Shown one piece after another: positions 38,801-41,087 of a stretch of 48,121 bases of DNA. Position 1 is the first letter of the stretch; every line of letters begins with the position of its first letter. The translations under genes and the position numbers were made by a program. The notes beneath the pieces were generated by a model. It did not search any database and was not told where the DNA came from. It was given only the letters and a program-made list of their open reading frames with translations. Source of the stretch: Armatimonadota bacterium (GTDB lineage Bacteria > Armatimonadota > UBA10988); NCBI GenBank assembly GCA_016235455.1, contig JACRKZ010000113.1:1-48121 (forward strand), in the 5' to 3' direction.

Positions 38801-39172
38801 TTCGACGCCATCTGGTACACCAATACGCCGGGCGCCAAGCTGACCTTCAAGTTCCGCGGCACCGCGGCCAGCCTGTTCAACATGATCGGCCCCGACACCG
38901 GCCGCGTGCGCCTGACTGTCGACGGCCGCGACCTGGGTATGCGCCAGCAGGTGGACCCGTGGTGCACCTACCAACGGCTGGCCGCGCTGGATATCGCCGG
39001 CGGGCTGGAAGACACCATCCACACCGTGGTCGTGGAGCTGACCGCCGATGTGCCCGACCGCAGCGCGCCCATCGGCGAAGCCAAGCGGGCAGGCAACTAC
39101 AAGCCGGCCGACTTCGAGGGCGTGGCGCTGCGCATCGGCTGGATCCGCCTGATCGGCGAGATCGTCAACTAA
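35807..39172 (+). CDS. Secreted right-handed beta-helix protein (GH141-like) fused to a degenerate SGNH/GDSL domain
   Basis: LYVAPTGQDTNAGRSADAPLAT, YFVENVFEELDAPGEWYLD, HNLIHDTPH, DTGGLY, GIYLDD, SQLADPLFVN..RFDFRLRPDSPALKLGFKPI; followed by an SGNH-fold region and a C-terminal beta-sandwich (LTFKFRGT). Confidence 0.85.
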   Translation: MLRFSVACCLLACVGGAMGLDLYVAPTGQDTNAGRSADAPLATPQRARDLLRELKPAGTSTVHLAAGAYHLAETLALGAEDSRVTWQAEGQVQLRGGRPLTGWQPFRGPIVQCDLKANGLAGKSFEQLFFAGQRMILARTPNVDADDPHGGAWAAVADVDKGSKTVFTWGRDIKPETWARPAEARVCIFPSWDWAWSRVNVKSVAPETRQVTLAGNTAYEMALGDRYFVENVFEELDAPGEWYLDRAKGTVYFYPPRPLDQGDVVAPVLRDLITLQGASDVSLRGLTVEVCDGDAVRMSGSTNCALVACTVRNCGNWGVVLAGGTKCQATGCDVSETGAGGINIDGGSRDTLTPGGHVADNNHIWHPGRFQRTYNCGINLGGVGNAATHNLIHDTPHAAVALSGNDNLFEYNIVHHTNLESTDTGGLYYCSRDWTMRGNIIRYNLWHDLGGFGKASSWNPVQGDRVNYEYPHFTWGIYLDDPTSGTTVYGNILYRVPICGLHNHGGSDNTWENNIVIDCPALNEGMLWREWNEYPGIIAKWRERTKPGSPYLARYPELATNYSAEQPEAMTGVRFLRNIVYYTVEGTKWLRGETGAGDRQLLYSVSMRDADWGRNEWDYNTIYCPPELNLSISLDRKPKPGEKLTWEQWRATGADAHSQLADPLFVNADRFDFRLRPDSPALKLGFKPIPADKMGCYESADRASWPLVIRSVETKPTRRWVVLPQYERTDPRPVAARDGLSATVAKLTAGGPVRIAYYGGGIHGAGGWRGAFIKQLAAAYPKATIEAIDGGITDAVRGSGFSTYRFGHDILAKRPDLVLVDYASDDYQTPVRDIQRAVEGVVRQARGADPAPDLLFVYAYRDGFEKDYAEGKTPATITAYERLADRYGIPSVDLACRVAEQVRGGQMAIKEPAAGGQKLFGRNGVIPGPDGEALYAAALAEAWPTLAKVTTRTRALPKPLTLDNQERARLVAIRPSMLSGAWRELAADDPLRRQEARQFDAIWYTNTPGAKLTFKFRGTAASLFNMIGPDTGRVRLTVDGRDLGMRQQVDPWCTYQRLAALDIAGGLEDTIHTVVVELTADVPDRSAPIGEAKRAGNYKPADFEGVALRIGWIRLIGEIVN

Positions 39173-39185
39173 CCGGCCCAAAGCA

Positions 39186-39213
39186 GACGGCCCGCCGCGT
39201 TGGGCGGGCCGTC
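39186..39213. terminator. Hairpin between convergent genes
   Basis: GACGGCCCGCC-N6-GGCGGGCCGTC, perfect 11-bp stem. Confidence 0.7.
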
Positions 39214-39236
39214 CCCTTGGCGATGATCACCTGGAC

Positions 39237-39932
39237 CTAGCTGGTGGGAACCGGGTCCCACACATTGAACCAGCACGGGTTGGTGTAAGGATAGCCGTCG
39301 AGTCGCTGGGCGCTCTTGTCGAGCGTCTTCACATGACCATCAAGGTACAACAGGTTGGTCTTGTCGAAGTGGCGGTAGGTGGTCTGACCACCATCCCAGG
39401 TGCTGTCGGTCACGCTGTACCAGCCCCAACCGTTCGTGCCGTTCGGCCACTGGTTGCGCTCCAACAGCACCACGGTCTTGGCCGGCGCCTGGAACGAGGC
39501 CAGGTTGAACGGCGTGCGCGTGGCGATCGTCCAGCCCTGGCCGGCATCGCAAGCCAGCACGTTGCAGGCCGCGGTGTAGGAGCGCCTGACCGTCGCGTTG
39601 TTGTACTGCGCTACCTGAGCCGTGCCGCTGGCATCACTCGGGCAGGTCAGAACCTGCGTGCTCTTGATGTACGGCTGGATCAGCGTGTCCCAGGTGCACG
39701 TCGTGCCGCTGGGCCAAGCGGTGTTGCCGATACCCCACGGCAGCAGCTCATCGTAGTCCTGGATGTACTGCGTGACGGCAATGCCCAACTGCTTCAAGTT
39801 CGACTGGCAACTGCTCTGCCGCGCCTTCTCCCGCGCCTTGGCGAACACCGGGAAGAGGATCGCCGCCAGGATGGCAATGATGGCGATGACCACCAGCAGC
39901 TCGATCAGCGTGAATGCACGCTTTCTACTCAC
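39237..39932 (-). CDS. DUF1559-type prepilin N-methylation / H-X9-DG protein (copy 1)
   Basis: [68 protein letters not shown]. Confidence 0.94.
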
Positions 39933-40241
39933 ATTCGTTCTCCATGCCGAGACGTCTCGGCTGGAACGATTCTACCGTCATTTCAGGCGTGATGCTTACG
40001 ATATCATGTGCCCGCTCGTGAAAGAAACACAACGGCGGCTCAGTCTTGTGGCGCGCCCTCCGGGTGAGCGGGGGCCCGCGGGTCCAACCGGCTGACCCAC
40101 AGCCGAGCCGAGCCGGAACGCGCGGCAGGACCTCTGACGCCGCGCAGCCCGCGCTTGTGCGAAGCCGTCGGGCTCAGACGAAGGGCAGACTTCGGTCCTA
40201 GTGGCCCTGGGGCTGCGCGACGGCATGACACCGAGGTGATG

Positions 40242-40313
40242 AGGCCGGCGGACCTCGAGGGTGTAGCCCTGCGCCTCGGCTGGATCCGGCTGGTCAGCGA
40301 GACCGTCAACCAG
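40242..40313 (+). repeat. Decayed direct copy of the 3' end of the beta-helix/SGNH gene (39101-39172)
   Basis: Gapless 72 nt with 13 mismatches by hand count: RPADLEGVALRLGWIRLVSETVNQ vs KPADFEGVALRIGWIRLIGEIVN*. Confidence 0.92.
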
Positions 40314-40324
40314 CAACCACCCAA

Positions 40325-40375
40325 CGAGCGAGGCGCCCGGTCGCCCTCGCGGGGGCTCTCGGACGCCTCGTTCGT
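40325..40375. terminator. Imperfect hairpin downstream of DUF1559 copy 2
   Basis: CGAGCGAGGCG...CGCCTCGTTCG arms, in the same relative position as the 39186 hairpin. Confidence 0.45.
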
Positions 40376-40403
40376 CGCGCTCAGAGCGCCGCCGGAGGGC
40401 TCC

Positions 40404-41087
40404 CTAGCTGGGGATGTCCCACGGATAGCACCACGATCCGCCCGCACCCACATTCAGGCCGGGGAACTGGAAGTACGGGCCGCCGCTCTTGCCGGGGTGC
40501 GTCTTGACGTGTCCGTCGGCATAGAGGAAGTTGGCCGCGTCGTTGTGGCGCCAGGCCGTCTGGTCACCCAGCGTCTCGCCGGTGGCATACCAGTTCCAGG
40601 CCGTCACGTTCAGGTTGTCCTTCTCATACAACATGACGGTGAGGGCCGGCGACGGAACGGCCGCGAGCGCCCGAGGCGGCCAGTTGGGGTCGCCGAGCAA
40701 CGTGCCGCCGATGGTGCGCGTCAACGCGTAGGAGCGGTAGATCGAGCCGCTGTAGATGCCGTTGGTGACCCGCTGCGACTTGGAGTCGCTGGGGCACTGG
40801 ATGATCTGCTGGCTCTTCATATAAGGCTGGATGGCCCAGTCCCAGGTGGCATCAGTGCCGTTCACCTGGAAGTTCTGGTACCACGACGGGTACTTCTCAT
40901 CGTAGTCCTGCACATACTGCGTGAAGGCCAGACCCAACTGCTTCAGATTGCTCTGGCAGCTCGACTGACGCGCCTTCTCCCGCGCCTTGGCGAACACGGG
41001 AAACAGGATCGCCGCCAGAATGGCGATGATCGCGATGACCACCAGCAGTTCGATCAGCGTGAATGCGTGCCTTGGTTTGCTTCGCAA
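40404..41087 (-). CDS. DUF1559-type prepilin N-methylation / H-X9-DG protein (copy 2)
   Basis: [62 protein letters not shown] start chosen 7 nt after AGGAG (the ORF track starts at 41108). Confidence 0.94.

Follow-up and report, generated by a model that had tools for sequence, protein, structure and literature searches.

Prophage-like elements such as e14 and phage 21 occupy the 3' end of the icd gene in E. coli and bring a replacement for that end with them; they span tens of kb and carry a gene for an integrase. In homology-facilitated illegitimate recombination (HFIR) foreign DNA is added without a recombinase through a homologous anchor on one side, the other junction being arbitrary; in experiments, recipient DNA is usually lost at the illegitimate end, without a duplication of 67-282 nucleotides (nt) such as that described below. 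HFIR in natural transformation was reportedly treated by de Vries and Wackernagel in 2002, Prudhomme et al. in 2002 and Meier and Wackernagel in 2003, and C-terminal displacement in Rhs and contact-dependent inhibition (CDI) loci was reportedly treated by Jackson et al. in 2009. At Rhs/CDI and type VI secretion system (T6SS) loci, additions at the 3' end of a gene keep the old 3' end and the downstream gene, which are shifted downstream, and arrays grow; Kirchberger et al. 2017 (PMC5361080) propose HFIR as the process behind the orphan arrays of T6SS, Rhs and CDI loci, for which no integrase is known. The locus considered here lies in a 48,121-nt stretch of DNA (the window), which is the entire contig JACRKZ010000113.1 (C59) of the Armatimonadota assembly GCA_016235455.1, a 93%-complete metagenome-assembled genome (MAG) of 6.5 Mb in 185 contigs with 69% G+C. 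It contains a gene for a beta-helix protein (the anchor gene), two DUF1559 genes that face it, d1 and d2, and, between these, a second copy of the anchor gene's 3' end. With chances put at about even, the locus is considered to be an insertion scar, in which a ~1.14-kb segment was joined into the anchor 3' end by recombinase-independent recombination and one copy of the tail was pushed downstream.

The functional tail and its copy (39101-39172 and 40242-40313; Table 1) align without a gap and are identical at 59 of 72 bases. The 13 differences comprise five synonymous third-position changes, six amino-acid changes (K>R, F>L, I>L, I>V, G>S and I>T, from working tail to copy) and two bases of the stop codon, where TAA is aligned with CAG; an earlier note on this DNA had reported the 13 differences, the five synonymous changes and the alignment of TAA with CAG, and its observation holds. 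F>L and G>S fall at positions conserved among orthologs, where the peptide of the working tail agrees with the consensus and the copy differs. Repeat search and blastn both delimit a 67-nt core at 85% identity with a spacing of 1141 nt. Against the whole genome, blastn of the tail returns the copy at E=6e-15 and the next match at E=0.005; no other copy is present. When the last 150 nt of 3291 genes were aligned to up to 6 kb of flank, none of the 3291 reverse-complement controls, downstream or upstream, scored at least 40; the tail pair of the d1/d2 locus scores 42. The junction 40241/40242 is crossed with 0 differences by Logan contigs that belong to the same study but to two further samples (X2 record 5, spanning 39883-40962, and X3 record 12, spanning 40142-40368), and a second study holds near-identical pieces on either side of it. 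Run X5 includes a more divergent strain, in which 39337-39503 and 40005-40338 are without contig cover and no contig joins across. Short joints in the run contigs have sides of <30 nt within the conserved DUF1559 N-terminus, and were set aside as belonging to other paralogs or organisms.

Table 1. Features of the d1/d2 locus and of the confirmed tail scars (positions on C59 unless another contig is named)
Feature	Position	Strand	Remarks
Anchor gene	35705-39172	+	1155-aa right-handed beta-helix protein, GDSL-like C-terminal part
Functional 3' tail of anchor gene	39101-39172	+	last 23 codons and TAA, contiguous with the gene
Hairpin 1, likely two-way terminator between anchor gene and d1	39181-39218	.	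inverted repeat and fold
d1, DUF1559 gene, likely cargo of the insertion	39237-39932	-	231 aa; PF07596 1.2e-12, PF07963 4.3e-09
5' flank of d1, up to junction with displaced tail	39933-40241	.	309 nt, unique in genome
Displaced non-coding tail copy of anchor gene	40242-40313	+	59/72 identity
Hairpin 2, likely terminator of d2	40324-40375	.	fold; sequence unrelated to hairpin 1
d2, DUF1559 gene, likely older resident	40404-41108	-	234 aa as listed, start uncertain; PF07596 6.8e-15, PF07963
Nucleoside-hydrolase-like gene	starts after 41251		
d1 scar	39103-39169 / 40244-40310		67 nt, 85%; cargo d1
vapBC scar	12461-12586 / 13366-13491	+	126 nt, 82.5%, spacing 905
Anchor of vapBC scar	tail 12461-12586		924-aa gene
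PIN toxin of vapBC scar	12600-13034	-	
Antitoxin of vapBC scar	13024-13281	-	
C27 scar	contig C27		162-nt blastn match, 79.6% (local alignment: 143 nt at 87.4% and 14 gap columns); cargo DUF6807 gene
C61 scar	contig C61		105 nt, 95%; cargo nucleotidyltransferase and truncated HepT-like RNase
C108 scar	contig C108		282 nt, 91.8%, in-frame stop; cargo 413-aa unknown gene and caspase-domain fragment

The proposed course of events would begin with the anchor gene converging on d2, hairpin 2 lying between the two and probably common to both. A ~1.14-kb segment carrying hairpin 1, an already long-diverged d1 and the 5' flank of d1 would have joined 72 nt ahead of the anchor stop; the anchor gene would keep an intact tail, and the other tail copy, shifted 1141 nt downstream, would then lose its stop codon and decay. 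General recombination without a dedicated recombinase is most likely, whether by HFIR, with the anchor gene providing homology at one end and an illegitimate join closing the other, or through a single crossover of a circular fragment carrying the tail. We infer the role of d1 as the incomer, the timing and the route of recombination. As expected of an HFIR-like event, the anchor gene has remained intact, its displaced 3' end lies beyond the added DNA on the downstream side, and no recombinase is associated with the locus in this MAG; the insert (39173-40241) holds d1 alone, with no integrase gene inside.

The two units have nothing in common beyond the tail (67-72 nt) and the coding block of the DUF1559 genes. 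Their terminator regions align with a score of 7.0, compared with 7.7±1.1 for shuffles (253 of 300 as good or better), and the 5' flanks of d1 and d2 with 9.0, compared with 9.6±1.1 (243/300); the DNA preceding the tail copy reaches 13.5 against the anchor gene, shuffles giving 11.6±1.2 (9/100 as good or better), and 39933-40241 shows no likeness beyond shuffles to the upstream region of the anchor gene or to its 5' part. The period of 1141 nt that the earlier note assigned to the whole unit stands for the tail only; between the DUF1559 N-terminal blocks the distance is 1149-1152 nt, and the rest of the units are unlike.

The d1 and d2 proteins are 52% identical, mostly within the first ~60 residues, which are common to all family members. 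The sole same-genus genome (G001, 80% complete) has a d2 ortholog (C55:1776-2456) with 80-81% amino-acid (aa) and 78.7% nt identity in a different neighbourhood; no d1 ortholog was found in G001, where the best match is the d2 ortholog at 54%. Within the genome of the window, d1 has d2 as its best match, and d2 has C108_12994. A careful 35-row tree groups d2 with the G001 gene (100/96), and a quick 64-row posterior mean site frequency (PMSF) tree, filtered for H.{9}DG, recovers a trio of d1, d2 and the C108 paralog with a support of 98 in the Shimodaira-Hasegawa-like approximate likelihood ratio test (SH-aLRT), its interior not settled. It is a safe statement that d1 and d2 are old paralogs which split before the two species did, because d2 shares 80-81% identity with the G001 ortholog, with which it is grouped, and d1 and d2 are at 52%. 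Syntenic intergenic DNA is unalignable between the two genomes in both of the pairs long enough to test; the 67-nt piece at 85% therefore either arose long after d1 and d2 had split, or had a coding role until recent times. In G001 the d2 ortholog is flanked by orthologs of two genes of contig C161, and because it sits between them, DUF1559 genes do, judging from gene order, relocate between species. That C161 slot (C161:23136-24668) holds an unrelated 510-aa gene in the genome of the window and appears to be a variable slot.

Further scars of this kind are present in the genome. Self-comparison found 322 pairs of local direct repeats at distances of 200-8000 nt, and a short subset of 114 (<=320 nt, >=74% identity, 250-8000 nt apart) was inspected; five tail scars were confirmed, two on C59 and one each on C27, C61 and C108, and one on C28 is possible only, its homology lying 162-230 nt ahead of the stop. 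The earlier note had asked for such a genome-wide search and for a tally of cargo, and had named a lack of further cases as a ground for refutation, but such cases exist; the second scar that it reported in the window, at ~82% around vapBC, is recovered with both its genes, a PIN toxin (Pfam, 2.3e-09) and a small antitoxin (DUF6364, 1.9e-04). The five scars are in five different target genes, with repeat lengths of 67-282 nt and cargo of 0.6-2 kb that is unrelated to the anchor gene and from scar to scar: two toxin-antitoxin pairs, d1, a DUF6807 gene, and the 413-aa gene with a caspase fragment. Homology ends at the stop codon in the d1, C61 and C27 scars (C27 keeps the stop) and ~10 nt before the gene end in the vapBC and C108 scars. 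Counted by codon position (1/2/3), the vapBC scar has 7/10/5 differences, the pattern of neutral decay; for all five scars together the counts are 21/27/30, which fits a uniform distribution (p 0.45) and departs from the 27/20/52% of functional orthologs (p 0.006). By this measure the displaced tails are, as a class, non-functional during most of their divergence, and neutral decay fits duplication at insertion better than long-lived second gene copies.

Gene calls came from a codon log-odds caller, which missed some genes including the open reading frame (ORF) of the C61 anchor. The C61 scar (4269-4845) is the youngest; its HepT-like piece of 76 aa covers profile positions 67-117 of 120 only, a truncated toxin adjoining an intact antitoxin-type gene. 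Beside the vapBC scar a small convergent ORF that matches nothing in Pfam (13265-13747, minus strand) reads through the displaced tail, and the vapBC insertion may have altered its C-terminus or stop. Several other candidates were rejected: those on C7 and C12 are tandem paralogs sharing a C-terminal motif, that on C4 was not recovered by blastn, and that on C135 is an intergenic repeat. The C67 candidate (3490-3611, also 1415-1535) belongs to a palindromic repeat of ~85 nt that is dispersed in at least 30 copies; repeats of this type are intergenic, ~80-90 nt long, contain two G+C-rich hairpins, are 79-90% identical across many contigs, and mimic a tail scar. The candidates on C71 and C178 are perfect adjacent repeats, in which the gene's last bases are copied directly after its stop codon (C71:2929-2997, 69 nt; C178:64460-64509, 50 nt).

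Several points weigh against an insertion scar at d1. The same-aa codons that differ between the two tails are 5 of 17 (29%); because orthologs between the two genomes show 27-47% and codon usage predicts saturation at 42%, synonymous sites cannot date the tail copy, and its source gene could have stayed functional for long. Split over the three codon positions, the d1 scar has 4/1/5 differences within its 67-nt core and 4/2/5 over 72 nt, too few to separate neutral decay from a once-functional homolog. In the 35-row tree the C108 paralog is nearer to d2 than d1 is, joining d2 and the G001 gene at 97/89 with d1 outside, yet the approximately unbiased (AU) test does not reject d1 as the sister of d2 (p 0.39); the phylogeny that had been proposed as a check places the d1/d2 split before the species split and leaves strict sisterhood allowed. 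Two of the five scars are 27 kb apart on C59 (rough p ~0.08) and may represent one episode, not a general route. Recombinases missing from a 93%-complete MAG may simply be unassembled. Lastly, the searches turned up neither a donor, nor a pre-insertion or alternative allele, nor a close relative, and the direction and mechanism are as we infer them.

The donor was sought in several collections. Among metagenome contigs, 61 pattern matches to the C-terminal 399 aa of the anchor protein gave 0 that could be confirmed, and a degenerate pattern of both tail versions gave 0 matches. In GTDB species genomes d1 has 576 relatives, the best full-length one at 47%, all at paralog level and mostly from Armatimonadota MAGs; among 40 relatives searched with the anchor protein the best orthologs are at 56%, and G001 has no full-length ortholog. 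The genome encodes a ComEC homolog, as do 10 of 14 control genomes, which lends weak support to the proposed insertion.

The rival that survives best, though rather unlikely, is an old duplication of the anchor gene together with its convergent DUF1559 gene, after which both anchors remained functional, d1 and d2 diverged fast, and a recent deletion left the last 72 nt of the second anchor. The small clade formed by d1, d2 and one paralog and the sisterhood that the AU test does not reject are in keeping with it, and the tail copy has the look expected of a recently truncated functional homolog: it is without indels, its amino-acid changes are mostly conservative, and its synonymous difference lies within the ortholog range. 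The 309 nt ahead of the tail copy, however, hold no trace of a second anchor gene or its 5' flank, and at the five loci inspected in other genera, orthologs or paralogs of the anchor gene, neither a second copy in tandem nor a DUF1559 gene in convergent orientation is present; the deletion would also have to end exactly within the last 72 nt, and the cargo of the other four scars, whose tails decay neutrally, is not explained by any duplication.

It is improbable that the locus is the remnant of a site-specific integrative element which entered the anchor 3' end with its own replacement tail and whose integrase was later lost or left unassembled. Such an element would account for cargo flanked by direct repeats of a gene's 3' end, for an intact gene and for homology that stops at the stop codon; toxin-antitoxin modules, which often survive the decay of islands, make up two of the five cargoes, and MAGs lose mobile DNA. 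Against it, assembled G000 (the genome of the window) has only two PF00589 matches, on C66 and on C135, the latter just upstream of putative hslV and hslU (translations read by eye), has 0 matches to the serine recombinase family PF00239, and has no PF00589 match on C59, C27, C61 or C108; no recombinase or transposase family was found by Pfam among 27 window proteins. The claim that no recombinase is in view stands for the window and the scar contigs, and the term 'integrase-free' rests on the 93%-complete MAG. Five different targets, the span of repeat lengths and small cargo without phage or conjugation genes are also unlike such an element, and the longest identical run in the d1 tail pair is just 13 nt; any crossover core may have been erased by decay. 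Of integron features, no integrase is nearby and the hairpin regions share no sequence, attC not having been scored directly.

The same final geometry would result if, as in the version of the earlier note, a diverged allele had been added, here from the other side and from a donor with the last 72 nt, hairpin 2, d2 and the downstream gene, through homology at the right and an illegitimate join behind d1. The ~18% divergence of both scars of the window could mirror a donor of similar distance, and the d2 lineage is common within the genus and has moved between neighbourhoods. This course is nonetheless quite doubtful: the pooled decay of the tails looks neutral, unlike functional divergence between donor and recipient, no such donor allele was found in metagenome contigs or GTDB species genomes, and each of the other four scars has its cargo enclosed by the two copies, as an insertion into the tail would leave it. 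Finally, a one-step tandem duplication of a 1.14-kb unit, or an assembly artefact joining two strain alleles, is very improbable: the order of parts and the similar unit length agree with it, and tandem DUF1559 duplicates are common in the genome, but the junction recurs in two other samples, the d1/d2 split is older than the species split, and on the sequence comparison the locus is not a one-step duplication because the neutral parts of the unit are unlike, though they should match as well as the functionless tail, which is 82-85% identical. In this respect the earlier note, which had set the locus apart from a plain in-place duplication, is upheld.

The d1 tail scar bears little on the size of the DUF1559 family. 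The genome has 114 DUF1559-like ORFs, of which 55 are within 1.5 kb of another, making 32 adjacent pairs. Expansion of the family is mostly plain tandem duplication: in 13 of the 32 pairs the members are each other's best hit, at aa identities that reach 96%, and a single pair, d1/d2, has a tail scar; the tail-scar route is a minor contributor at best, and the suggestion that it helps to explain the expansion is not borne out. No account of the growth of DUF1559 arrays was found in the literature searched, supplements being outside the search.

The anchor protein matches Beta_helix (2.6e-16) and NosD (3.7e-07) in Pfam, and Lipase_GDSL_2 under the cutoff (7.6e-07). Its orthologs in four other genera are ~56% identical and conserve the C-terminal motif F[ED]GVALR[IF]GW[IL]R. 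Both d1 and d2 look intact, carry the C-terminal H-X9-DG (H.{9}DG) and belong among DUF1559 / H-X9-DG pilin-like proteins, with PF07596 bit scores of 48.9 and 56.3 (cutoff 23.3) and PF07963 bit scores of 36.0 and 35.9, respectively; by family membership, their products are predicted to be type IV pilin-like or pseudopilin-like proteins with an N-terminal cleavage-methylation motif. Hairpin 1 corresponds to the inverted repeat I6, with 16-nt arms that are 88% complementary, and folds at -33.9 kcal/mol on the plus strand and -44.9 kcal/mol on the minus strand (z -4.8); hairpin 2 folds at -48.7 and -54.1 kcal/mol, respectively. The hairpins and the family of both genes were thus correctly recognized from the letters, and the promoter described as part of the unit was not recovered: a sigma-70-type scan of 39000-41500 gave 0 matches (shuffles give 0.3). 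Rfam returned a single chance-level match to a long non-coding RNA (E 0.07, 24.8 bits against a gathering score of 70).

The DNA of the window is present in groundwater and freshwater metagenome runs according to the run records, and the best species-genome matches of its DUF1559 genes are mostly Armatimonadota MAGs. The bulk of the genes around the locus are assigned by Pfam to GH35, GH2, GH38 and melibiase/NPCBM. Two neighbouring genes in this region rich in glycoside hydrolases (6582-9761 and 9822-12596) encode large, secreted-looking proteins that both contain an HZS_alpha middle domain and also have lectin-type or F5/8 type C domains. A 2725-aa open frame on the minus strand (31004-39181), antisense to two real genes, was rejected as an artefact of high G+C; ORF length by itself is misleading in this genome, as this frame exemplifies.

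As a speculative extension to which little probability is given, Armatimonadota may have a recurrent recombinase-independent route that adds small self-contained cassettes at the 3' ends of ordinary genes, renewing the tail and leaving the old one behind, and these may be possibly undescribed passive mobile cassettes; such cassettes would, with equally slight likelihood, bring along a terminator and a promoter of their own and consist, as at the present scars, of a toxin-antitoxin pair, a pilin-like gene or a single enzyme. If true, such a route would generalise the 'displacement' of Rhs/T6SS loci to non-toxin loci. Should a regular process lie behind the five scars, displaced tails could serve as inexpensive markers by which gene gain is recognized in phyla known from MAGs only, and the model would reach from toxin loci to ordinary genes. 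A scar of this kind would date and order events in a gene-family array; adjacent DUF1559 genes need not stem from local duplication, and small cassettes, toxin-antitoxin pairs included, can join the ends of genes in this genome with no mobile-element machinery visible.

The process has close known analogues. Like the ordinary DUF1559 tandem arrays of the genome, d1 and d2 are adjacent, on the same strand and spaced by ~1 kb; unlike young arrays, whose members are reciprocal best hits at 55-96% aa identity with gaps of 46-273 nt, they are separated by a 472-nt gap with a foreign gene fragment, have unlike flanks and are only 52% identical. The locus resembles HFIR in that DNA would be added without a recombinase, and differs from the experimental cases by the duplication of 67-282 nt. 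As with e14 and phage 21, the gene is intact, a diverged copy of its 3' end lies beyond the insert and synonymous changes are among the differences; the cargo here is 0.6-2 kb, however, and the four scar contigs have no integrase. The closest known process, the displacement in Rhs, CDI and T6SS loci depicted by Kirchberger et al. 2017, is similar in that new DNA is placed at the 3' end of a conserved gene and the old end is pushed downstream; there, variable toxin tips are encoded by the displaced ends and the matching immunity gene is the cargo, so selection explains their retention, whereas at the present locus an ordinary enzyme gene serves as anchor, its tail is conserved, and the cargo, pilin-like at this locus and toxin-antitoxin, DUF6807 and others elsewhere, is unrelated to the anchor.

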